A stretch of DNA of 64,000 nt, taken from NCBI GenBank assembly GCA_963711735.1, contig CAVQFA010000003.1:470966-534965 (forward strand), written 5' to 3'. Below, piece by piece: positions 4,471 through 23,237 of the stretch. The number at the start of each line of letters is the position of its first letter. Position 1 is the stretch's first letter. The translations under genes and the position numbers were made by a program. Below the pieces are notes generated by a model. The model did not search any database. It saw only the letters and a list, made by a program, of their open reading frames with translations, and was not told the origin of the DNA. Source of the stretch: Candidatus Gottesmanbacteria bacterium. Lineage in GTDB: Bacteria > Patescibacteriota > Microgenomatia > UBA10105 > UBA927.

Positions 4471-4806
4471 ATGATCTGTATGAATACGTCACCTGAAGCA
4501 GAAGAACAACACGAATCGCGTTATCTGGATTTTTTGAAAGACTGTCTTGACGGAAATCTGTGGGAGAATTTAACATTCGAACAATGGAATAGAATAAAGT
4601 ATAGAGAGTCATTGCTGTCTGAATACAACGATTATTGTCTGCAAAATTTAATAAATGCAAATGGGGATATTAAAGAGCTTCAGCTTCACGATGGAAATTT
4701 TTATGATTGGATGGCAGAAGTGAAAGGAATCGCACTAACATCAGATGAAGAAGAAATGAGAATTTACACATCGCAACCGGAACAAACGGAATCACCTATA
4801 GAATAG
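4471..4806 (+). CDS. hypothetical acidic protein
   Basis: 111-aa ORF preceded by a TATAAT-like box. Competes with an antisense ORF at 4331-4660. Confidence 0.3.
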   Translation: MICMNTSPEAEEQHESRYLDFLKDCLDGNLWENLTFEQWNRIKYRESLLSEYNDYCLQNLINANGDIKELQLHDGNFYDWMAEVKGIALTSDEEEMRIYTSQPEQTESPIE

Positions 4807-12160: not shown

Positions 12161-13198
12161 ATGTCGTATGTACCTGAAACTCTTGTATTAACACTTTCCC
12201 GGCAGTGTAATATTGAATGTAGTCACTGTATCGTCGAAGCAGAACCGAGAATATCAGAAGAACTTGATGTCAATATCATTAATTCTTCGCTTAGGCAAGC
12301 AAAGCAAATTGGCATACGAACTGTTTGCATCTATGGTGGAGAACCGTTTCTCCAGACCAGCGGACTTCTTCCTCACACCATACGCCAAACCTTTGCTGAG
12401 GGATTTCCTTTCGTTTCAATCGGAACAAATGGATTTTGGGGAAGAACAGAAGCACAGGCACAAAAAACACTATCCGAGTTGAAAAAGATAGTTAGCTCTT
12501 ATGACGGTATGATTGGTCTTGGCATGTCAGTAGACCGATTCCACCAACCGAGCGTACCACCACAATCAATTGCAAATATAATTTCAGTTCATAGACGTGG
12601 TAATTTCCCAAATATTCGATTAGGAATTCATACGTTCAAAGATCAACCATCATTTGATATTGTCGGACAGGTATATGATCGTGCGATGCGTAATGATTTG
12701 CATATGATCGAGAGTAATGACGCAGGATATATATATCCTGCGTTGAGAGAAGAGTTTATCGAGTTTTCCAGTGAGAACTTTCCCGTCATTAGACGTAATC
12801 TTGATTTACCTGAGGATGCAGATGAAAAGCATATCTTTGAATCACTTGTATTCAATCTTGATGTTTCACATGCAATGCGCGATGTGATGTTACCAAAAAT
12901 AATCGCACGTCAGATGGATATCGGTAACGGATTCGAAAATTACTTGATCTTTCCCAATCATACATATTTATTAGATTTTATTGTTGAGGAAAAAGTACTG
13001 AATGCCGGAAGGGCAAGGATTTCAGGTAATTTAGAAACTGCCCGCGATATGGACTCAGATACTGACTATTTGGTCATCGCTCCAAATGGTCAAGCATATG
13101 CCTATCCTGCTCATATTACCGCAGAATCAGGAATTATTATCGGAAATAAATCACTAAAACAGGTTGTAAGAGAAGTTGAAAACAAATGGTTCTATTAG
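12161..13198 (+). CDS. radical SAM domain protein (CX3CX2C motif C-N-I-E-C-S-H-C); cargo gene
   Basis: Canonical CxxxCxxC cluster at residues 16-23, followed by a glycine-rich SAM-binding segment (CIYGGEPF). No SPASM/twitch Cys cluster. Confidence 0.7.
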   Translation: MSYVPETLVLTLSRQCNIECSHCIVEAEPRISEELDVNIINSSLRQAKQIGIRTVCIYGGEPFLQTSGLLPHTIRQTFAEGFPFVSIGTNGFWGRTEAQAQKTLSELKKIVSSYDGMIGLGMSVDRFHQPSVPPQSIANIISVHRRGNFPNIRLGIHTFKDQPSFDIVGQVYDRAMRNDLHMIESNDAGYIYPALREEFIEFSSENFPVIRRNLDLPEDADEKHIFESLVFNLDVSHAMRDVMLPKIIARQMDIGNGFENYLIFPNHTYLLDFIVEEKVLNAGRARISGNLETARDMDSDTDYLVIAPNGQAYAYPAHITAESGIIIGNKSLKQVVREVENKWFY

Positions 13199-13471: not shown

Positions 13472-14260
13472 ATGAGTGAATCTGACATAAAAGTTAATAT
13501 TCAGCCGTCAGAAATTCAGCCTCAATCCGAACAGCCAAAGGAAGCCCGCGCACCAGTCCCCGGAATGAATAAAATAAAGTCATCTCATCTTCAGATAGCA
13601 TTGATGGCACTTCTTCTTATATCGATCACTACAGCAGGATATCTTGGTTATAAGTATTACGTATTCAATAATACATTAACTGTTACGCCGCCACAGCCTG
13701 AACAACCAGTTAAAACCATACCAACAATTACCCCTATTCTGACACCAGTATTTTCAATATCAGTAAATCCCGCTACAGGTCAGAATTTATATTCAAACAC
13801 AACATATGGGTTTAGTTTTGAATATCCTAAGGATTTTGTTATTGAAAATCAAAACCCCCCTAGTATTGGAGTAATGGGTAACAATATTGTCGGGCTCATC
13901 CGAAGATCTATGTACTTCCTGCCTAACTACCTACAAAATATAAGTAGGTATAATGAATATCGAAATCGGTTCACCAATATAAAAAAGCTAAATGTCGGAG
14001 AGTCGTACACATATGAACCAGTAGATACTTTTTTTGAGACGACAACCAGAATAGCTGATATGAAAATCGGAGGAATAACTTCTTATGTTTTTGATGTTCC
14101 TAAGGTTTGGGAAGGGGAAGGACCGTATAGAGAAATATATTTACCCAAAGGTGATGATTATATACAGATATTTTATACGAATTCTAACGATAAAGAAGAT
14201 CCGATTGATTACGTAAAAGGCTTTAACCAGATTCTATCCACTTTTAAATTTACTTATTGA
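13472..14260 (+). CDS. hypothetical membrane-anchored protein (262 aa), cargo gene flanked by the perfect repeats
   Basis: A hydrophobic helix at about residue 40 and a Pro-rich linker. No motif. Confidence 0.5.
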   Translation: MSESDIKVNIQPSEIQPQSEQPKEARAPVPGMNKIKSSHLQIALMALLLISITTAGYLGYKYYVFNNTLTVTPPQPEQPVKTIPTITPILTPVFSISVNPATGQNLYSNTTYGFSFEYPKDFVIENQNPPSIGVMGNNIVGLIRRSMYFLPNYLQNISRYNEYRNRFTNIKKLNVGESYTYEPVDTFFETTTRIADMKIGGITSYVFDVPKVWEGEGPYREIYLPKGDDYIQIFYTNSNDKEDPIDYVKGFNQILSTFKFTY

Positions 14261-14265
14261 TTTTT

Positions 14266-14427
14266 GTACCCCCAGTCGGATTCACTGCAAAGCTACGCTT
14301 TGAGTGCTCGCCAGCAGTATGACTCGTAAATATGAATTTACTCGTTAACTGCTGGTTAGCGAACCTTCGGTTCTCACCGACATGGGCATGAAAAAAGCAC
14401 CCATTAGGGTGCTTTTTTCATGAGTAC
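14266..14427 (+). repeat. Repeat R2, a 162-bp unit identical to R1 that abuts the tRNA-Glu gene and overlaps its 3' end by 4 nt; it includes the tRNA's terminator
   Basis: 100% identical to 13207-13368. Its terminal GTAC is the start of the genuine tRNA 3' segment. Confidence 0.9.
14388..14423. terminator. Perfect hairpin terminator immediately downstream of tRNA-Glu (minus strand), also able to act on plus-strand transcripts
   Basis: Same sequence as 13328-13363. Confidence 0.7.
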
Positions 14428-14498
14428 CCCCAGTCGGATTCGAACCGACGGTCTACACGTTGAGAACGTGTCGTCCTAGGCCGCTAGACGATGGGGGC
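14425..14498 (-). tRNA. tRNA-Glu, anticodon CUC
   Basis: Reverse complement GCCCCCAUCGUCUAGCGGCCUAGGACGACACGUUCUCAACGUGUAGACCGUCGGUUCGAAUCCGACUGGGGGUA folds as a cloverleaf (GUCU D-stem, ACACG/CGUGU anticodon stem, loop UUCUCAA, T-arm GUCGG-UUCGAAU-CCGAC). Close to E. coli tRNA-Glu. CCA is not encoded, and pair 1-72 is G.U. Confidence 0.85.
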
Positions 14499-14727: not shown

Positions 14728-15192
14728 ATGGATATCAATCAACCAAAAATACTGACAAAAGAAGGTCTTGCTGAGCTTAAACAGGAACACGAAGAACTCG
14801 TAACCGTTAAACGGCCCTCCATTGTGACCCGTCTGGCTGACGCACGGGAACTTGGAGATCTTTCCGAAAACAGCGAATACGCTGCAGCAAAGCAGGATTT
14901 ATCATTCATAGACGGACGCATTACCGAACTTGAAGAGTTACTTCATGGTGCAAAGATCGTTACAAGCCACAAAAAGGGATCCGTCGACGTGGGGTGCAAA
15001 GTTACCCTTCATATCAACGGGAAAAAAGAAGTATTTACCGTTGTCGGTGAATGGGAAGCAGATCCGACGCAGAAAAAGATTTCAAATTCTTCACCGCTTG
15101 GCAAGGCACTCATTGGGAAAAAGCCCGGCGATAAAGTCGAGGTGGAAGCTCCTGCGGGAACGCTTTTGTATAAAATTCTGCACATCGAATAA
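14728..15192 (+). CDS. greA: transcription elongation factor GreA
   Basis: N-terminal coiled-coil LTKEGLAELKQE...LGDLSENSEYAAAK and a C-terminal FKBP-like domain. SD GGGGAG upstream. Confidence 0.9.
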   Translation: MDINQPKILTKEGLAELKQEHEELVTVKRPSIVTRLADARELGDLSENSEYAAAKQDLSFIDGRITELEELLHGAKIVTSHKKGSVDVGCKVTLHINGKKEVFTVVGEWEADPTQKKISNSSPLGKALIGKKPGDKVEVEAPAGTLLYKILHIE

Positions 15193-15426: not shown

Positions 15427-17742
15427 ATGTTCTGGGCAGACAGAATTGCAAAAGAAATCATTGGCAGCGGACTCTATCGTCCTTTTTGGGCGGATGATAT
15501 GTTCACCCCCTCAGGTTATGCACACATTGGTTCATTGCGTGGTCCCTTAGTCCATGACGTTATCTACCGTGCAATAACCGATGCAGGACAAAAAGCAGTG
15601 TCGACGTATGTTTTCAACGACTTTGATCCTGTGGACGGATTACCGTCTGAGCTTATGCATCTGTCCGATGAGCTTGGCAAACCGCTCCGCCTGGCGAAAT
15701 CTCCTGACGGCGGATACGCGAACTTCGCAGCGTACTTTGCACATGATTTTCAGACAGTGCTTCGGTCGCTCGGAGTCGGAGCGGAATTTCTCTCCAGCTG
15801 GGATATGTATCACGAAGGGAAATTTGACGGTGTTATCCGTACTGCCTTGGATCATGCACCCCTCATCCAGGACATCTATCAGCGTGTGAGCGGGAGCAAA
15901 AAACGCGAAAAAGGATGGCTTCCTCTTCAGGTTATCTGCGAGAAATGCGGGAAACTCGGAACAACGAGGGTGCATGATTGGGACGGGACGTTTGTTACAT
16001 ACACATGTGAAGAATCCATGGTTTCATGGGCAAAAGGATGTGGGTTTACCGGGAAAACCAGTCCGTTTACGGACCCGGATGATCCGAAACATCATCCCGG
16101 CAAGCTGCCGTGGAAAGTAGACTGGCCGGCACACTGGAGGGTCCTTGGCGTGACGATTGAAGGAGCAGGTAAAGACCATTCATCCGCGGGAGGTTCCCGG
16201 GATATCGCGAAGGTTCAGTGCAAAGAAGTCTTTGAAATACCGGAACCGTACAATCTGCCATACGAATTCTTTCTCATTGGAGGCAGGAAAATGTCCTCTT
16301 CTAAGGGGATCGGTCTCAAAGCTCGGGAGCTAACGGAAATCCTTCCGCCTCAATTAGGCAGATTTCTTTTCGTCCGCACGGATTACCACCAGGCAATAGA
16401 ATTTGATCCGGTCGGTACAACGGCAATTCCTGATTTGTTTGATGAGTACGACCGGTGTTTCACGGCATATGTAAACGGAGGCGATGAAAATCTGTCCCGT
16501 GCATTTGTATTATCACAAATCGGTAAAGTCCCGGAGAAATCTCCGGTTTTCATCCCGAGATTTCGCGACATTACCAATGTGCTTCAAACCCCTCACGCAG
16601 ATGCGGGTAAAATATTTACACAAAAAGCCGGACGGGTACTTACCGGACAGGAAGAAGAGATACTCAGGGAACGTATCTCATATGCACGTCTTTGGCTTTC
16701 TAAATTTGCACCTGAGGAAATGCTCACATCAATGACGAAAGAAATTCCCGATGATGTGAGAACTTTATCAGGGACACAGAGAGATTTTCTTACCCGTGTT
16801 GCCGATATGGTGAAGGATGCACAAAATCCTGAGAAACTACAGGAAGATTTATATGCACTCACGAAGGAAATGAAGATGAGCACAAAGGATGCTTTTTCTT
16901 CACTTTATATAGCGCTTATCGGGAGGAAGTACGGTCCCAAAGCAGCATGGTTTCTCCTCCAATATCCCAAAGATACCGTTGTGACACGCTTACGTGATGC
17001 AGCGAAACACCGGGAAGAAAAAGTTAAGCACGCTCCGGAGGATTTTGAAGTGATTGTTAAACCCGAATTTTTTACGATAGATCCTGCAGTGACGAAGTCG
17101 TACCCTACCGTTTCAATCGGAATTGCATTCATATCAAATGTCCACATAACTCTCAAAAATAATGAGCTGGAAAAGGAAAAAGCAAAAACTGTGGAACAAA
17201 TCCGCACCAATACTCTTGAAGAACTGGGAAGCTCTCCGGAGATAGTAAGCTACAGGAAGCTCTATAAACAAATGGGTATCGATTGGCATTCCCGGAGACC
17301 CTCTCCCGAGGCGCTTGTGCGGAGAATCATACAGGGCAAAGGACTCTATGAGGTAAACACGTGTGTGGATGCATATAATCTGTCAGTGGTGAAAAATCTG
17401 GTTTCCGTCGGTGCATTTGATGCGGACTCTATAAAGTTTCCGACCGTCTTGCGGTTTGCCAAAAGCGGTGATGAGATTCTTCTCCACGGCGACACCAAAC
17501 CGACAGCGTATACATCCGAAGAGCTGGCATACTATGATAAGTCCGGAGGATACAACATTGATTTTAACTACCGTGATGCCAAACGTACGCTCGTCACGGT
17601 TCATACGAAGAATATCTGGATAAACGTTGACGGTATATATGACATTTCAAAAGAGGCAGTATGGCATACGCTTCTCTCTGCTATAACGGGAATTATGAAA
17701 TACTGCGGCGGCACGCTTGAGTGGAAAGGGTTAGTGACATAA
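15427..17742 (+). CDS. lysK: class I lysyl-tRNA synthetase (archaeal-type LysRS) fused to a C-terminal B3/4 domain
   Basis: HIGH-type motif (YAHIGS) and KMSKS-type motif (KMSSSKG). The C-terminal roughly 210 aa (nt about 17100-17742) match the B3/4 domain (PSPEALVRRIIQG...VNTCVDAYNLSVV...GAFDADSI). Confidence 0.8.
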   Translation: MFWADRIAKEIIGSGLYRPFWADDMFTPSGYAHIGSLRGPLVHDVIYRAITDAGQKAVSTYVFNDFDPVDGLPSELMHLSDELGKPLRLAKSPDGGYANFAAYFAHDFQTVLRSLGVGAEFLSSWDMYHEGKFDGVIRTALDHAPLIQDIYQRVSGSKKREKGWLPLQVICEKCGKLGTTRVHDWDGTFVTYTCEESMVSWAKGCGFTGKTSPFTDPDDPKHHPGKLPWKVDWPAHWRVLGVTIEGAGKDHSSAGGSRDIAKVQCKEVFEIPEPYNLPYEFFLIGGRKMSSSKGIGLKARELTEILPPQLGRFLFVRTDYHQAIEFDPVGTTAIPDLFDEYDRCFTAYVNGGDENLSRAFVLSQIGKVPEKSPVFIPRFRDITNVLQTPHADAGKIFTQKAGRVLTGQEEEILRERISYARLWLSKFAPEEMLTSMTKEIPDDVRTLSGTQRDFLTRVADMVKDAQNPEKLQEDLYALTKEMKMSTKDAFSSLYIALIGRKYGPKAAWFLLQYPKDTVVTRLRDAAKHREEKVKHAPEDFEVIVKPEFFTIDPAVTKSYPTVSIGIAFISNVHITLKNNELEKEKAKTVEQIRTNTLEELGSSPEIVSYRKLYKQMGIDWHSRRPSPEALVRRIIQGKGLYEVNTCVDAYNLSVVKNLVSVGAFDADSIKFPTVLRFAKSGDEILLHGDTKPTAYTSEELAYYDKSGGYNIDFNYRDAKRTLVTVHTKNIWINVDGIYDISKEAVWHTLLSAITGIMKYCGGTLEWKGLVT

Positions 17743-17746
17743 AGAC

Positions 17747-18364
17747 ATGAAAAGGCTCCTCGTAGGTACCTCTAATCCCGGAAAGCTCTCAGAGTTTACA
17801 ACGTGCCTTTCAGACCTTCCTATTAAGATAATCAGCCTGACAGATATAAGATTACCGGGAGATGCTCCCGAGGATGCCCCTACTTTTTCCGGGAATGCAG
17901 AGAAAAAAGCAGTGTATTACCTCCGGAAGTCCGGCATCGCGACCCTTGCGGATGACGGGGGACTGGAAATTGATGCACTATCCGGCGAACCGGGGGTCAA
18001 ATCACACCGCTGGGTTGACGGCAGGAAAGAAAATACTGATGACGAACTTATCCGGTTCACGTTTGAAAAAATGAAAAATATTCCTTCGGAAAAAAGGGGA
18101 GCACAGCTTCACGTCGTTGTTTGCTTTGCGGATATTTCCGGTAATATATACAAAGAGGAATCCGTAGTCCGCGGAATCATCCCTTTCAAACCGTCAGGGA
18201 AAATTACCCCGGGTTTCCCGTACCGTTCGCTTCTCTATATTCCCCAAATCGGAAAATTTTACGACCACGATATCATGACAATGGAAGAAACAGAGCGTTT
18301 CAATCACAGAATGAAAGCTGTAGAAGCCCTGAAACCGCATATTAAACAATCCTTTGGAGTATAA
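17747..18364 (+). CDS. rdgB: non-canonical purine NTP pyrophosphatase (RdgB/HAM1 family)
   Basis: N-terminal TSNPGK motif and overall Ham1 similarity. Confidence 0.8.
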   Translation: MKRLLVGTSNPGKLSEFTTCLSDLPIKIISLTDIRLPGDAPEDAPTFSGNAEKKAVYYLRKSGIATLADDGGLEIDALSGEPGVKSHRWVDGRKENTDDELIRFTFEKMKNIPSEKRGAQLHVVVCFADISGNIYKEESVVRGIIPFKPSGKITPGFPYRSLLYIPQIGKFYDHDIMTMEETERFNHRMKAVEALKPHIKQSFGV

Positions 18365-18409: not shown

Positions 18410-19660
18410 ATGTTAGACATTAAATTTATCCGTGAAAATCTTGAAATCTGCAAAAAAGCAGCCGTGGATAAAAACCGGAAAGTCGACTGGGACGCTCTTC
18501 TTTCATCAGATACGAAGAGGCGGTCTCTTATCTCCGAAATCGATGCACTCAGGAAGGACCGTAACGCAGTAAGCGCCCTTAGAACCGACCAGGCAAAAGT
18601 GAAAGGGAAAACGATCAAAGAAAAGATTCAGAAGCTCGAGGGCGAACTACGGAGCGTTGAGGAAGCATTCGGAGAGCTTATGGGCACGGTACCGAATGTT
18701 CCGGACCCCTCAGTTCCCATAGGGAAAGATGCAGCGGGAAATAAGGAACTCCGGAAATGGGGTGACGTTCCGAAGTTTTCTCTTACACCCAAAGATCATA
18801 TCGAACTGGCGAAAAATCTGGATCTTATTGATTTTACGCGCGGTGCGAAAGTCGGCGGATTCCGGGCATATTTCCTGAAAAACGAAGCAGCGCTTCTGGA
18901 ATGGGCCATCATGTTATACGCATTCCGTAAGCTGATCGATAAAGGTTTTACACCCATGACTGCTCCCTCACTCGTGAAAGATTTTACGCTCTTTGGTAAC
19001 GGACAGTTCCCGTGGGGTAAAGATGAGGTTTATCATGTCGAAAAAGATGACATGTACCTTGCAGGTACTGCAGAAGTCCCCGTGACGGCATACTTTGCTG
19101 ACGAAATACTGAGTGAGTCTGAATTGCCGAAAAAGTTCGTTGCGTATTCACCGTGTTTCCGGCGGGAGGCAGGCAGTTACGGGAAAGATACCAAAGGGGT
19201 TTACCGAGTACACCAATTCAATAAAATTGAACAAGTAATTATCTCAACTGCAGAAATGAACACTTCCATTACTCTTCATGAGGAATTACTCACAAATGCA
19301 GAAGAAATTTTACAGGATTTGAAACTTCCGTACCGTGTCATGTTTATGTGTACCGGTGACATGGGTGAGCCGCAGGTGAAAAAATATGACATAGAAACAT
19401 GGATGCCCGGAAGGGGTGAATACGGAGAAACTATGTCAGATTCGTTCATGGGTGACTTTCAGGCACGGAGATTAAAAATCCGCTACAGAGGGAAAAACGG
19501 CGAGGTAAAATTTGCCCACACACTGAATAATACCGCGCTGGCATCACCCCGCATTCTTATTGCAATTATGGAAAATTACCAACAGGCTGACGGATCCATT
19601 AAGGTTCCCGATGTGCTGGTACCTCTTGTCGGAAAGGGGTTGATACAACGGAAAAAGTAA
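18410..19660 (+). CDS. serS: seryl-tRNA synthetase
   Basis: N-terminal coiled-coil arm and class II motifs. Typical SerRS length of 416 aa. Confidence 0.9.
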   Translation: MLDIKFIRENLEICKKAAVDKNRKVDWDALLSSDTKRRSLISEIDALRKDRNAVSALRTDQAKVKGKTIKEKIQKLEGELRSVEEAFGELMGTVPNVPDPSVPIGKDAAGNKELRKWGDVPKFSLTPKDHIELAKNLDLIDFTRGAKVGGFRAYFLKNEAALLEWAIMLYAFRKLIDKGFTPMTAPSLVKDFTLFGNGQFPWGKDEVYHVEKDDMYLAGTAEVPVTAYFADEILSESELPKKFVAYSPCFRREAGSYGKDTKGVYRVHQFNKIEQVIISTAEMNTSITLHEELLTNAEEILQDLKLPYRVMFMCTGDMGEPQVKKYDIETWMPGRGEYGETMSDSFMGDFQARRLKIRYRGKNGEVKFAHTLNNTALASPRILIAIMENYQQADGSIKVPDVLVPLVGKGLIQRKK

Positions 19661-20328: not shown

Positions 20329-20483
20329 TTTTCCTTCTTGACAAACACGCTCATTTTTCAGACTCTCATATATAGGGAAGAAATATATTTCTTTATATCC
20401 CGATACTGATCATACCGGGATGCCTGCCCAAATCCTCAATTGAAGTACCGCAATTGAGGGTTTTTTGTGGTATCATTAACGTC

Positions 20484-23237
20484 ATGCTGAAGTTTCTGTC
20501 GAAGTTGCTTGATACCAACCGCAAAGAAATTAAAGATCTGGGCGTCATAGTCGCACAAATCAACTCACTCGAAGAGAAAATCTCAAGGTATAAAGAAGCT
20601 GATTTTGCCAAAGCAACGCTGTCTTTTCGTGAGCGTTTACAAAGCGGCGAAACACTCGATGACATTCTTCCCGAAGCGTATGCACTTGTGCGTGAAGCGT
20701 CCGTTCGCAGTATCTCCCAGCGTCATTATGATGTGCAGCTTATGGCTGCAATTACGCTCCACAGGGGGAAAATTGCCGAGCAAAAAACCGGCGAAGGAAA
20801 AACATTATCAGCGATCCCCGCATTATACTTAAATGCCTTATCCGGGAGGGGTGCGCACCTCGTCACCGTCAATGATTACCTGGCACGTCGTGACGCAGGA
20901 TGGATGGGTAAAGTGCTTAAACTTCTCGGGCTTAGCGTGAGCGCCATGATTTCTGACCAGTCTTTTATTTATGATCCTGAGTATACGGATAATGCAATGG
21001 ATGACTGGAGGTTGCAGCATTTAAGGCCCATCACGCGCAAAGAGGCATACCTTACGGATATAACCTACGGGATAAACAGTGAATTCGGATTTGATTACCT
21101 TCGCGACAATATGGTGTCGGACATGTCCCAAATCGTTCAGCGTGCGTACCACTTTGCCGTTATTGACGAAGTGGATTCTATTTTAATAGATGAAGCACGC
21201 ACCCCGCACATCATTTCCGCCCCTGACACGGAAGCAACGCACAAATACTATGATTATGCCAAAATTGTGGATAAACTCACTTCCAAACTGGATTATGAAA
21301 TAGATGAGAAGCTGCATACCGCGCATCTGACCGATCACGGCCTTCTGAAAATTGAGAAGATGCTCGGTGTCGGCAATATTTACGAAAATGATTTTGATAC
21401 CGTGCACCACATAGAAGCCGCATTGAAGGCAAGAACTCTGTTTATCAAGGACAAAGAATATATCGTCAAAGACGGGCAGGTCGTTATCGTTGATGAATTT
21501 ACCGGAAGATTGTTAACCGGAAGGAGATTCAGCGAGGGCATCCATCAGGCTATAGAGGCAAAAGAAGGGGTAGCGATTCAGCAGGAAAGCAAAACGCTTG
21601 CCACGGTATCGCTTCAGAATTACTTCCGTATGTACGAGAAGCTTGCAGGTATGACGGGAACGGCTGCAACAGAAGCAGAGGAGTTTAAAAAAATATACAA
21701 CCTTGATGTTGTGGTAATCCCGACAAACAAAACGATGATCCGTACGGATTATGCCGACAGCGTTTACAAAACCCCGAGAGCGAAATATTCAGCCATCGTA
21801 GAGGATATCACTGACTGTTATAAACGCGGTCAACCGGTGTTGGTAGGAACCACGTCGATAGACAAAAACGAAATTATCAGTGAGTTTCTCAAACGGAAAG
21901 GAGTTCCGCACCAGGTCCTCAACGCCAAAAACCATCTGAAAGAGGCAGCAATCATCGCCGGGGCCGGGAATAAAGGATCAGTAACGGTTGCAACAAATAT
22001 GGCGGGACGCGGTGTTGATATTATTTTAGGTGGTCCGAGGCTTGAGAAATGGGAAGTGAAAAATGAAACTGAATGGAAAAAACATGAAAAAGAATGGCAG
22101 AAATTGCACGATGAGGTCTTAGCTTCAGGTGGATTGCATGTCATCGGGACAGAACGGCATGAATCCCGAAGAATTGATAACCAGCTTCGGGGCAGATCCG
22201 GCCGTCAGGGGGATGCAGGGTCCAGCCGGTTCTATGTATCGCTTGAGGATGACATCATGAGGCTTTTCGGCGGGGATCAGGTAGCAAAACTAATGACGAT
22301 CTTTAAGCTTCCCGAGGACGTACCATTAGAGCATCCGATGGTATCACGTTCCATCGAACAGGCACAGGTGAAAGTGGAGGGATTTCACTTTGATTCCAGA
22401 AAAAATCTGGTGGAATATGATGACGTTTTAAATAAACACAGGGAGATTATATACGGCACACGGAGAAAGGTGCTTGAAGGGGAAAGCCAGAAAGATACCA
22501 TACTTGAAAATATTTCCAAAGACATAAGCCATACGGTAGGATTTTATTCAGGAGGTCAGGGTGTTGAAATAGACAGAGAGAAAATATTATCGGAATTTCT
22601 TTCCATCATACCTTTTGAGGAAAATTCCCGCAGTCAGATACTGGCACAGCTTAAGGATCTGAAAACTCCGGAAGAGATAACGGATTTTTTAACGGCTATT
22701 GCCCGTGATCTGTATGAAAACAGGGAAAAACAGGTAACACCGGAAATCATGCGCCAGGTTGAACGGTGGGTATCATTAGGTATTATTGATAATCTATGGA
22801 TGGAGCATCTGGATGCAATTGATGATCTTCGGGAGGGTATAGGACTCCGGGGGTACGGCCAGCGTGACCCGCTTGTCGAATATAAAAACGAGGCATTTTC
22901 CATGTTTGAAAGGTTGATGGGAGCAATCGACAGTGAGATTATTCACAGAATTTATAAAGTGCAGATTGCACAACAACCGCAGCAAGTCGTACGTTCCGGA
23001 ATTAAGGCAGAGGATAAAAAGAAACCAAGTCAGCAACCTGATGATCCCGGTGTGCATGGTCAGGGTGAAATAATTCCTTCGGAAACAAAAATTACCAAAG
23101 AGGCGAAACGCGCAAGAACCAATGAGGCAACTGTCGCTGCACAGCCAAAAACACAAAAGCAAATCGGCCGCAACGATCCGTGTTGGTGCGGGAGCGGGAA
23201 AAAGTGGAAGAAATGCCATTATCCCCAAGTAGGGTAA
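20484..23237 (+). CDS. secA: preprotein translocase ATPase SecA
   Basis: MLKFLSKLL start and full SecA-length similarity. C-terminal zinc-finger CWCGSGKKWKKCH. The ORF is open from a TTG at 20454, but the ATG at 20484 matches SecA N-termini. Confidence 0.9.
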   Translation: MLKFLSKLLDTNRKEIKDLGVIVAQINSLEEKISRYKEADFAKATLSFRERLQSGETLDDILPEAYALVREASVRSISQRHYDVQLMAAITLHRGKIAEQKTGEGKTLSAIPALYLNALSGRGAHLVTVNDYLARRDAGWMGKVLKLLGLSVSAMISDQSFIYDPEYTDNAMDDWRLQHLRPITRKEAYLTDITYGINSEFGFDYLRDNMVSDMSQIVQRAYHFAVIDEVDSILIDEARTPHIISAPDTEATHKYYDYAKIVDKLTSKLDYEIDEKLHTAHLTDHGLLKIEKMLGVGNIYENDFDTVHHIEAALKARTLFIKDKEYIVKDGQVVIVDEFTGRLLTGRRFSEGIHQAIEAKEGVAIQQESKTLATVSLQNYFRMYEKLAGMTGTAATEAEEFKKIYNLDVVVIPTNKTMIRTDYADSVYKTPRAKYSAIVEDITDCYKRGQPVLVGTTSIDKNEIISEFLKRKGVPHQVLNAKNHLKEAAIIAGAGNKGSVTVATNMAGRGVDIILGGPRLEKWEVKNETEWKKHEKEWQKLHDEVLASGGLHVIGTERHESRRIDNQLRGRSGRQGDAGSSRFYVSLEDDIMRLFGGDQVAKLMTIFKLPEDVPLEHPMVSRSIEQAQVKVEGFHFDSRKNLVEYDDVLNKHREIIYGTRRKVLEGESQKDTILENISKDISHTVGFYSGGQGVEIDREKILSEFLSIIPFEENSRSQILAQLKDLKTPEEITDFLTAIARDLYENREKQVTPEIMRQVERWVSLGIIDNLWMEHLDAIDDLREGIGLRGYGQRDPLVEYKNEAFSMFERLMGAIDSEIIHRIYKVQIAQQPQQVVRSGIKAEDKKKPSQQPDDPGVHGQGEIIPSETKITKEAKRARTNEATVAAQPKTQKQIGRNDPCWCGSGKKWKKCHYPQVG

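Follow-up and report, generated by a model that had tools for sequence, protein, structure and literature searches.

A single open reading frame encodes a class I LysRS with a C-terminal B3/4 module

The window analysed here is a stretch of 64,000 nt from a contig of Candidatus Gottesmanbacteria, which belong to the Patescibacteria (candidate phyla radiation). Nucleotides 15427-17742 constitute a single open reading frame on the + strand, to which all features described below belong; it starts with ATG and encodes 771 aa followed by a stop codon. As judged from this frame, from homologues and from an AF2 model, the whole gene encodes a class I lysyl-tRNA synthetase (LysRS) extended by a CtdA-like B3/4 module. 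Full-length homologues from a protein cluster search were 51-64% identical, and both Pfam domains were present in all of them. The AF2 model of the complete 771-aa protein had a mean pLDDT of 90.5 and a pTM of 0.65, the latter indicating that the placement of the LysRS body relative to the module is unreliable. Upstream of the gene no match to an RNA leader or riboswitch reached threshold, and neither a second LysRS, an ArgRS or a further B3/4 gene nor a tRNA-Lys gene was found within the 64-kb window.

Profile searches and alignment to PDB entry 1IRX identified residues 1-525 as a complete class I LysRS. The NCBIfam model TIGR00467 (lysS_arch) matched aa 1-522 with 315.9 bits (cutoff 147.55), Pfam PF01921 matched aa 2-354 with an E-value of 3.7e-76 and 256.8 bits (cutoff 27), and the match to 1IRX (E 5e-61) extended from end to end, with query residues 2-523 aligned to residues 3-520 of the 523-residue chain. 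PF01921 and 1IRX place the catalytic (Rossmann) domain at aa 2-354 (15430-16488). The HIGH and KMSSSKG motifs named in the preliminary description could be read directly from the sequence. The HIGH-type signature is H33-I-G-S36 (HIGS; 15523-15534), with G35 and S36 invariant among 68 homologues and H33 at least 90% conserved, and the KMSKS-type signature is K288-M-S-S-S-K293 (16288-16305) within a KMSSSKG stretch spanning aa 288-294 (nt 16288-16308), with K288, M289, S292 and K293 invariant in the same set. Alignment columns of the 68 homologues further revealed four invariant cysteines, C171, C174, C194 and C205 (15937-16041), which we take to be the probable zinc-binding insertion of class I LysRS. 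The helical, anticodon-binding part of the body, defined by 1IRX and by TIGR00467 up to aa 522, comprises aa 355-525 (16489-17001), and PF19269 matched weakly at aa 446-525. Residues 1-525, HIGH, KMSKS and the four cysteines are thus shared with canonical class I LysRS, represented by the Pyrococcus horikoshii enzyme (1IRX) and TIGR00467. However, the canonical enzyme ends at about 520-530 aa and has no editing domain, whereas the protein studied here is about 246 residues longer.

This extension measures about 223 aa without the linker and about 246 aa with it, close to the approximately 210 aa estimated previously. The linker, aa 526-548 (17002-17070), was delimited by conservation and AF2 pLDDT. 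It is variable, without a single invariant column among 23 and with a mean identity to this protein of 15%, and it is predicted to be disordered, the pLDDT of aa 531-537 falling below 50.

The appended module is CtdA-like rather than PheRS-like

The complete module covers aa 549-771 (17071-17739), as defined by free-standing homologues, AF2 and Foldseek. Its core, aa 609-742 (17251-17652), was recognized by Pfam as B3_4 (PF03483; E 1.2e-18, 67.7 bits, cutoff 29.3), so that the C-terminal B3/4 domain noticed from the sequence alone is borne out by a profile search; the three peptides quoted for it at the time lie at aa 625-637, 643-655 and 662-669. Free-standing proteins of 220-240 aa align to the module from their residue 3-8 through to the end. 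Modelled in isolation, the module reached a pLDDT of 92 and a pTM of 0.90. With this model, Foldseek matched the structures of CtdA (9f7e and 9mkl), the free-standing B3/4 canavanyl-tRNA(Arg) deacylase, with a query TM-score of 0.77 and a target TM-score of 0.77-0.79 (E 8e-15, 232-237 columns), while PheRS beta gave TM-scores of 0.55-0.61 (E 5e-10). All of the top 35 Foldseek matches were CtdA, PheRS beta or LRRC47.

Fold and topology are shared with CtdA over about 230 aa, and the CtdA-type topology is present over the whole module, including the helical insert. A sequence match to 9f7e was also detected by HMMER (E 0.004), at an identity to CtdA of just 17-20%. CtdA is a free dimer, whereas the module forms one chain with a synthetase. 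With the B3/B4 editing domain of PheRS beta (6oz5, 1pys, 3pco) it has in common the fold, PF03483 and the principle of built-in post-transfer editing. Nevertheless, the PheRS-specific helices are missing and the CtdA-type helical insert is found instead, and the PheRS beta domain is embedded between B1/B2 and B5 of PheT, whereas the module is terminal and attached through a flexible linker. TIGR00472 (pheT) scored only 12.8 bits at aa 612-691, and Pfam detected no other PheT domains in the 771-aa protein. Altogether, the module is CtdA-like rather than PheRS-like. Of the kinship first suggested, the link to free-standing deacylases therefore stands, while a specific likeness to PheRS beta does not.

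Within the protein, conservation is highest in the B3_4 core. Invariant columns make up 21% of this core (28/134), compared to 16% of the catalytic domain and 0% of the linker, which argues for a selected active site and not for a passive appendage.

An invariant pocket retains the essential residues of CtdA but differs at candidate specificity positions

The motif D648-A-Y-N651 (17368-17379) contains, according to the HMMER alignment to 9f7e/9mkl, the equivalent of CtdA N105 and PheRS N254, the Asn that presumably sits at the ester bond to be cleaved. All 68 fusion proteins examined have N651, and Asn occupies this position in 102 of 109 family members. Furthermore, G662 within G662-A-F664-D665 (17410-17421) aligns with CtdA G116. 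The CtdA study describes Asn105 and Gly116 as essential and the N105A variant as inactive (PMC12449066); both residues are kept in the module.

The remaining pocket differs from that of CtdA. F664 replaces E118 and is, from the alignment, a candidate specificity position. N710 stands in place of C166 and D717 in place of Q173, at the two ends of a segment (17554-17577) running from N710 through N714-Y-R-D717. N733 within N733-V-D-G736 (17623-17634) replaces I189 at the last pocket position; here W731 and D/E735 anchor the alignment, which is less secure than elsewhere in the pocket. All six pocket equivalents (N651, G662, F664, N710, D717 and N733; signature NGFNDN) are invariant in the 68 fusion proteins. 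D648, D665, D704, N714, R716 and T721 are family-wide and common to the module and CtdA.

The module lacks three pocket residues of the CtdA-1 clade, whose Cys166 corresponds to N710, which is invariant in the 68 fusions, whose Glu118 corresponds to F664 and whose Gln/Glu173 corresponds to D717. Cys166 is reported to be strictly conserved in CtdA-1 and to determine canavanine specificity (PMC12449066). The same study describes an uncharacterised CtdA-2 clade from Chloroflexi, Bacillota and archaea that keeps N105 and G116, has C166 absent or different and is about 20% identical to CtdA-1. Compared to CtdA-2, by this published description only, the module likewise keeps N651 and G662, has N710 for C166 and is 17-20% identical to CtdA. 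Of the PheRS editing residues (R244, N254, H265, G318 and E334 in E. coli), it shares only the Asn, with G662 in place of H265 and Y641 in place of R244; these positions were matched through the CtdA/PheRS correspondence given in PMC12449066 together with our HMMER alignment. According to the same source, the PheRS editing residues other than Asn are not conserved in the CtdA lineage.

The fusion is recurrent in Microgenomates

The in-frame fusion is kept at 67 of 80 genome loci across Microgenomates lineages, and both domains are present in all of the 120 best protein clusters. The preliminary description had called for a check against an annotation fusion and had pointed to the region near nt 17000, where a frameshift or stop would split the frame. 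That it reflects an assembly, frameshift or gene-calling artefact can be discounted almost entirely: the frame is uninterrupted, with neither a stop nor a frameshift near nt 17000, the GC content runs smoothly across the LysRS/module boundary, and the in-frame junction at 67 of 80 independent loci from many studies and in 120 of 120 clusters rules out fusion by assembly or annotation.

The other 13 of the 80 close relatives are without the module, and no B3/4 coding sequence was found in any frame within 4 kb on either side of these unfused loci. As they are nested among fused lineages, the module is dispensable. The databases name the fusion only "lysine--tRNA ligase", with both Pfam domains tagged automatically. 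LysRS-B3/4 or ArgRS-B3/4 fusions found no mention in the searchable full text outside subscription journals, which includes the CtdA papers and a 2026 deacylase-mining paper. The extension is thus common in Microgenomates, as had been considered, but it is not a catalogued one in that literature; the fusion is recurrent yet uncharacterised.

Class II LysRS carries modules of the same clade

Among the best 150 representatives at 50% identity, the module was carried by class I LysRS in 25 cases, by class II LysRS in 16 and by ArgRS in five, and by no other synthetase. The class II identity of the LysRS partner was affirmed by TIGR00499, which scored above cutoff in all five fusions tested. Class II LysRS-B3/4 fusions are widespread in Patescibacteria. 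Their modules belong to the same clade in a neighbour-joining tree (without support values) and are also placed C-terminally, and the pocket signature NGFNDN is identical on class I and class II LysRS, including that of an Asgard archaeon. In P0126 the module is 54% identical to that of our protein, and many class I fusions are equally close. P0126, P0134, P0281 and P0283, from Patescibacteria and the Asgard archaeon, share with the class I fusion the module clade, the pocket, the placement and the synthetase specificity. Their body, however, has the unrelated class II fold, a shorter linker of about 7-40 aa connects it to the module, and some of these proteins contain HD, DUF2000 or tRNA_bind domains as well. 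Among the relatives, P0144 carries an additional tRNA-binding domain, PF01588. The ArgRS fusions fall into a CtdA-like clade and most of them have CtdA-type pockets. The strongest functional clue was thus located outside the gene itself, in the same module clade on class II LysRS and a CtdA-like clade on ArgRS.

When the C-terminal LysRS fusions were compared with CtdA and most ArgRS fusions, the pocket proved to follow the synthetase partner. Of 35 C-terminal LysRS fusions, 33 have F or Y at position 664 and two have M, while the equivalent residue is E in CtdA and in four of the five ArgRS fusions. Position 717 is D in 34 of the 35, whereas CtdA has Q there; three of the ArgRS fusions have E, a fourth has Q and the fifth, P0244, has D. 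Two of three N-terminal B3/4-LysRS2 fusions have the CtdA-like pockets NGECEV and NGDCEV, and P0244 has a Y...D pocket type without the Asn, so that pocket type tracks the partner imperfectly.

The free-standing relatives that bear names come from Bathyarchaeia and Bacillota, and no lysine link was found in the gene neighbourhoods of the free-standing relatives. The free-standing proteins P0392 and P0211 adjoin radical SAM genes, and a radical SAM ORF is located 2.2 kb upstream of the gene studied here; a functional link was rejected since the three radical SAM proteins are alike only in the CxxxCxxC region, implying that the adjacency is coincidental. A Bathyarchaeal neighbour with a class II core was likewise rejected as a LysRS/EpmA-like protein, being AsnRS/AsnA-like.

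Proposed function and alternatives

By analogy, the module probably works like CtdA, hydrolysing the ester bond between an amino acid and the 3' end of a tRNA. Since the partner is LysRS and not ArgRS, the substrate is presumably not canavanyl-tRNA-Arg. With modest confidence, based on the complete LysRS body, the CtdA-type fold, the conserved pocket and the recurrent fusion to both LysRS classes, we favour an active post-transfer editing domain that would remove a wrong amino acid from tRNA-Lys. The class I LysRS body would charge tRNA-Lys, and a near-cognate amino acid, probably cationic or polar, would be attached in place of lysine. Either while still bound to the body or once released from it, the mischarged tRNA would insert its 3' end into the module's pocket, where N651 would direct a water molecule at the ester and the incorrect amino acid would be hydrolysed off, while the pocket lined by F664, N710, D717 and N733 would exclude or disfavour lysine itself. 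We infer that such hydrolysis of mischarged tRNA-Lys would proceed either in cis or in trans by a module that stays tethered. In class I LysRS the chain ends on the anticodon-binding side, well away from the catalytic site, whereas in class II LysRS it ends on the catalytic core; the occurrence of one module in these two geometries would argue against strict cis channelling. Ornithine was not adopted as the edited amino acid because class I LysRS reportedly does not charge it (PMC8001834). Against an editing function stand the 13 of 80 relatives without the module, the exceptions to the match of pocket and partner, and the missing lysine link in the neighbourhoods of free-standing relatives.

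The preliminary description had anticipated an added module, proofreading-like or tRNA-binding, on a synthetase that usually has none, and the evidence favours this reading. Between the two roles, we regard a purely non-catalytic one as unlikely, in which a tRNA-binding or retention domain would strengthen the binding of tRNA-Lys or pass the tRNA on without any hydrolysis. PheRS uses B3/4 domains to contact the acceptor end of tRNA, some relatives such as P0144 add a further tRNA-binding domain, and dispensability in 13 of 80 relatives would also fit such a role. However, the pocket, including the Asn that is essential in CtdA, is invariant and exceeds the surface in conservation, and the nearest relatives of solved structure are active deacylases. 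The pocket also co-varies with the partner synthetase, as a generic RNA-binding surface would not be expected to do.

If the module is a hydrolase, the question arises of its task. It appears very improbable that it is a CtdA orthologue clearing canavanine from tRNA-Arg in trans and merely tethered to LysRS. Although no solved structure matches the module better than CtdA, in fold or in sequence, and the equivalents of N105 and G116 are conserved, the changes of C166 to N710, E118 to F664 and Q173 to D717 speak against orthology, as do the low identity and the finding that true CtdA-type pockets occur on ArgRS and not on C-terminal LysRS fusions. Another task, such as regulated deacylation of Lys-tRNA-Lys, removal of D-lysine or of lysine on a wrong tRNA, or cleavage of a non-tRNA lysyl ester or adenylate, we consider quite unlikely. 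It would be compatible with the conserved putative catalytic residues and with the weak hydrolysis of cognate Arg-tRNA-Arg by CtdA described in PMC12449066, and the HD and DUF2000 hydrolase-type domains added in relatives hint at a broader nucleotide or ester chemistry around LysRS. Nevertheless, hydrolysing its own correct product would be futile for the enzyme, and the characterised B3/4 hydrolases all reportedly act on mischarged tRNA (PMC12449066 and PMC10018355). We therefore return to editing of mischarged tRNA-Lys as the preferred function. Its wider form, a lysine proofreading system in which a CtdA/B3-B4 clade with the pocket N-G-F/Y-x-D-x is dedicated to mischarged tRNA-Lys and was recruited by LysRS of both classes, in Patescibacteria as well as in at least one Asgard archaeon, is a tentative proposal that falls somewhat short of probable.

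Implications for a possible proofreading of lysine charging

ProRS INS/YbaK/ProXp, AlaRS editing/AlaX and ThrRS N2/ThrRS-ed each use one hydrolase fold in fused (cis) and free (trans) form; the evolutionary pattern is the same as that of the B3/4 module, but the fold is different. To our knowledge, no such cis/trans editing pair has been described for lysine, and neither class of LysRS is known to have a domain dedicated to post-transfer editing. The class II enzyme relies on pre-transfer cyclisation to eliminate ornithine, homocysteine and homoserine (PMC8001834). The fusion suggests that some organisms proofread lysine charging. With a conserved LysRS-deacylase fusion in both enzyme classes, lysine would join the amino acids subject to synthetase editing, the CtdA family, discovered in 2023-2025, would gain a second specificity, and natural cis versions would exist of an enzyme so far known only as a trans factor. 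The pocket differences E to F, C to N and Q to D offer a ready comparison for substrate choice by B3/4 deacylases, and the module could serve as a tool to control misincorporation at lysine codons. If the proposed function is correct, a function could be assigned to the many uncharacterised B3/4 proteins that are free-standing and share this pocket type, perhaps the CtdA-2 clade, LysRS would not be universally editing-free, and a natural lysine antimetabolite or near-cognate threat would exist in these habitats. The fusion also makes it testable which amino acid endangers lysine codons in such scavenging bacteria with reduced genomes.

An in-frame fusion of class I LysRS with a complete B3/4 protein

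The fusion gene (window positions 15427-17742, + strand) is a single ORF of 771 codons with an ATG start and smooth GC content, and its frame is neither stopped nor shifted near nt 17000 in the window sequence. In Pfam, the class I LysRS catalytic domain covers aa 2-354 (PF01921, E 3.7e-76), followed by a weak match to the anticodon domain at aa 446-525 (PF19269) and by the B3/4 domain at aa 609-742 (PF03483, E 1.2e-18; 67.7 bits, cutoff 29.3). Residues 1-522 correspond to the archaeal-type LysRS equivalog TIGR00467 of NCBIfam (316 bits, cutoff 147.55), and HIGS (aa 33-36) and KMSSSK (aa 288-293) signatures were read from the protein sequence. Pyrococcus horikoshii 1IRX, the only solved class I LysRS, aligned with the body from end to end (E 5e-61; query 2-523 with residues 3-520 of the 523-residue chain). 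This implies that the synthetase is complete by about residue 525 and that the remainder is additional. By every testable criterion the protein belongs to both class I LysRS and Pfam B3_4. The Pfam, NCBIfam and 1IRX results confirm the preliminary description, which had read one ORF for this two-part protein, had suggested the PF03483 profile search, and had quoted peptides that we located at aa 625-637, 643-655 and 662-669.

The two parts are joined by a 23-residue linker (aa 526-548) with no invariant columns and 15% mean identity, predicted to be disordered (pLDDT <50 at aa 531-537 in the full-length AF2 model). Elsewhere this model is confident, with a mean pLDDT of 90.5, but its pTM of 0.65 makes the relative placement of the domains unreliable. 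The B3/4 module (aa 549-771) is one compact alpha/beta domain (modelled alone, AF2 pLDDT 92 and pTM 0.90). Its free-standing relatives, 220-240 aa long, match it over nearly their whole length (residue 3-8 through the end), and therefore the fused part is a complete free-standing protein rather than a piece of one. Within the fusion polypeptide, conservation is highest in the B3_4 core (aa 609-742), with 21% invariant columns compared to 16% in the catalytic domain and 7% in the anticodon-binding part.

The gene lies in a housekeeping stretch with tRNA-Glu(CTC) (14424-14498, - strand) and, all on the + strand, greA (14728-15192), a Ham1/RdgB-type NTP pyrophosphatase gene starting 5 nt past the fusion stop (17747-18364), serS (18410-19660) and secA (20454-23237). 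No lysine- or analogue-related genes adjoin it in the window. Further upstream, an ORF for a 345-aa radical SAM protein (12161-13198, +), which resembles YydG-type peptide epimerases only weakly (64 bits, cutoff 300), precedes one for a 262-aa protein without a Pfam family (13472-14260, +). The former has no relationship to those radical SAM genes that lie beside free-standing B3/4 genes elsewhere.

Distribution of the class I fusion

Among 5.8 billion proteins searched, 3785 were relatives, and all of the best 120 contained both PF01921 and PF03483 (51-64% identity, 736-992 aa). Names, where given among these 120, were 'lysine--tRNA ligase' only, from Gottesmanbacteria, Levyibacteriota or Patescibacteria; the closest relatives were from Gottesmanbacteria (~64% identity). 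When one genome per GTDB species was surveyed, 67 of the 80 best loci carried the in-frame fusion, ranging over Gottesman-, Davies-, Levyi-, Woese-, Roizman- and Beckwithbacteria, CPR3 and Dojkabacteria. These matches place the source of the window among Patescibacteria of the Microgenomates type, nearest to Gottesmanbacteria. Given this recurrence and the uninterrupted reading frame, an artefactual fusion, for which the preliminary description had proposed a check, is of negligible probability.

The other 13 loci encode an unfused LysRS whose body is just as close (56-62% identity) but ends at about residue 525, and no B3/4 coding sequence was found in any frame within ±4 kb of them. In a neighbour-joining (NJ) tree of the body, built without support values, unfused genes were nested among fused ones in several places and the deep branches were all fused. 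The simplest reading of these sequences is an old fusion followed by repeated secondary loss of the module. The module is thus an accessory that aminoacylation would not require.

At one Roizmanbacteria locus (L066, MGAG01000013.1), a separate 59-aa match to the C-terminal end of the module (4595-4771, 49% identity) lies in a different frame, ~1 kb beyond the 3' end of the intact fusion gene, and may be the remnant of a duplicated module. The Microgenomates-type gene also occurred in many genome records under the titles 'uncultured Gammaproteobacteria bacterium', 'Candidatus Sulfotelmatobacter sp.', 'Vitreimonas sp.' or 'Acidiferrales' (loci L004, L006, L007, L011, L021, L049, L064 and others), which appear to be placeholders or mistaken assignments given to Patescibacteria bins.

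The same module on both classes of LysRS

With the module only as query, HMMER was run exhaustively over 1.84 billion cluster representatives and yielded 1773 relatives at E<1e-3, 489 of them with E<1e-10. The best 150, classed by domain probes with Pfam and NCBIfam as a check, carried the module C-terminally on class I LysRS (25) or class II LysRS (13), N-terminally on class II LysRS (3) or ArgRS (5), or consisted of B3/4 only (104, mostly 220-240 aa, some of them fragments); no other synthetase was found as a partner among them. The class II partners were genuine LysRS in all five cases tested (TIGR00499, 448-595 bits, cutoff 427.6). A follow-up search showed class II LysRS-B3/4 proteins of ~715-735 aa to be widespread in Patescibacteria (Parcubacteria, Levybacteria), alongside LysRS2-B3/4-HD, LysRS2-HD and plain LysRS2 forms.

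An approximate NJ tree of the module, without support values, intermixed the window protein and the C-terminal fusions to both LysRS classes in one clade. CtdA, a canavanyl-tRNA(Arg) deacylase, fell elsewhere among free-standing proteins, as did the fusions to ArgRS and those with the module at the N-terminus of LysRS2. The module of one class II protein (P0126) is 53-54% identical to that of the window, as close as many class I fusions. A 973-aa class II LysRS from an Asgard archaeon (P0134, MFX1535370.1, Promethearchaeota) has a module with an identical pocket, which suggests that the fusion or the module was transferred across domains of life.

Further architectures were seen on LysRS of both classes, namely LysRS-B3/4-HD, LysRS2-HD (~690 aa), LysRS2-B3/4-DUF2000 and LysRS2-tRNA_bind-B3/4-HD; proteins with extra domains include P0067 (992 aa), P0272, P0274, P0275, P0277, P0319 and P0322 (~920 aa), P0136 and P0144. 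LysRS is known to make Ap4A, and the HD phosphohydrolase domain might be a candidate nucleotide hydrolase. One ArgRS (P0194) has two module copies.

A conserved pocket that differs from that of CtdA

By sequence, the only solved relatives of the module are CtdA of Pseudomonas canavaninivorans (9f7e, E 0.004) and of Salmonella (9mkl). CtdA was also the best fold match, over the full length (TM 0.77, E 8e-15). Next came bacterial PheRS beta with its B3/B4 editing domain (TM 0.55-0.61, E ~1e-9), and then archaeal and eukaryotic PheRS beta and LRRC47. CtdA works as a free-standing deacylase, clearing tRNA-Arg of canavanine (PMC10018355; PMC12449066); its pocket is defined by N105, G116, E118, C166, Q173 and I189, activity is lost with N105A, G116H/W or Q173G, and specificity is tuned by C166 (PMC12449066). 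A HMMER alignment anchored on the family-wide motifs VDxYN, VGx and NxRxxxRT mapped these residues to N651, G662, F664, N710, D717 and N733 of the window protein, respectively, all six being invariant among 68 fusion proteins. Compared to CtdA, the module keeps the chemistry residues, whereas those reading the side chain are different and fixed, as one would expect if the enzyme were active on another substrate. Since the specificity residues differ, the module does not classify as CtdA proper, nor does it classify as a PheRS editing domain. It may belong, or be sister, to the uncharacterised 'CtdA-2' clade, described as keeping N105 and G116, lacking C166, and occurring in Chloroflexi, Bacillota and archaea (PMC12449066); the named free-standing relatives (Bathyarchaeia, Bacillota) are consistent with this range.

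The pocket signature varies with the partner synthetase. NGFNDN was found in the window protein, in class I fusions and in six class II fusions (P0126, P0134, P0136, P0139-P0141), and other C-terminal LysRS fusions read NGFTDx or NAYCDx. Overall, all 35 C-terminal LysRS fusions have F, Y or M at 664, and 34 of the 35 have D at 717. CtdA (NGECQI) and four of the five ArgRS fusions (P0194, P0210, P0239, P0244, P0258) have E at 664 and Q or E at 717, the four reading NGE(C/T)(E/Q)(V/I), that is NGECE(V/I) or, in P0194, NGETQI. The fifth, P0244 (LGYTDF), is of the Y...D type without the Asn, and two of the three N-terminal B3/4-LysRS2 fusions (P0205, P0232, P0220) have a CtdA/ArgRS-like pocket (NGECEV, NGDCEV). 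The link between pocket and partner is therefore strong, not perfect, and a simple partner-pocket rule does not explain the N-terminal LysRS2 fusions. The ArgRS proteins with an N-terminal CtdA-type module look like natural cis-editing enzymes against canavanine, judged from their pockets.

Predicted editing of tRNA-Lys

The main argument that the module would deal with tRNA-Lys is its presence on both LysRS classes, because two unrelated folds that share only the amino acid and the tRNA carry the same module and pocket. We lean towards post-transfer editing as its predicted function. The LysRS body would charge tRNA-Lys, a wrongly charged tRNA-Lys would offer its 3' end to the tethered module, and N651 would position a water on the ester, as is proposed for N105 of CtdA and N254 of PheRS (PMC12449066), whereupon the amino acid would be released. 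The pocket, with acidic D717, several Asn/Asp residues and an aromatic in place of the Glu of CtdA, would suit a lysine-like side chain that is cationic or polar. The C-terminus lies on the anticodon-binding side in class I LysRS and at the catalytic core in class II LysRS. As the two C-termini sit differently and the linker is flexible, we would favour a tethered trans-editor, recapturing tRNA after its release, over strict channelling. The textbook near-cognate, ornithine, is reported to be a substrate of class II but not of class I LysRS (PMC8001834). Free-standing relatives of the module had no genomic link to lysine genes in the neighbourhoods examined.

The preliminary description had left open a tRNA-binding role. 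A non-catalytic tRNA-binding domain is unlikely, as the invariance of the pocket and its co-variation with the partner argue against it. An active hydrolase with another task is likewise unlikely. That the module is a true CtdA acting on canavanyl-tRNA-Arg is very unlikely, in view of the loss of C166, E118 and Q173.

The preliminary description had also considered that the domain might be a common, already catalogued LysRS extension. It is recurrent, and domain databases tag LysRS-B3/4 proteins automatically, but no B3/4 fusion to LysRS or ArgRS was found in the searchable literature, which includes the CtdA and 2026 deacylase-mining work and excludes most subscription journals. Altogether, LysRS-B3/4 is a recurrent, uncharacterised synthetase whose appended, predicted editing domain has free-standing homologues as well.
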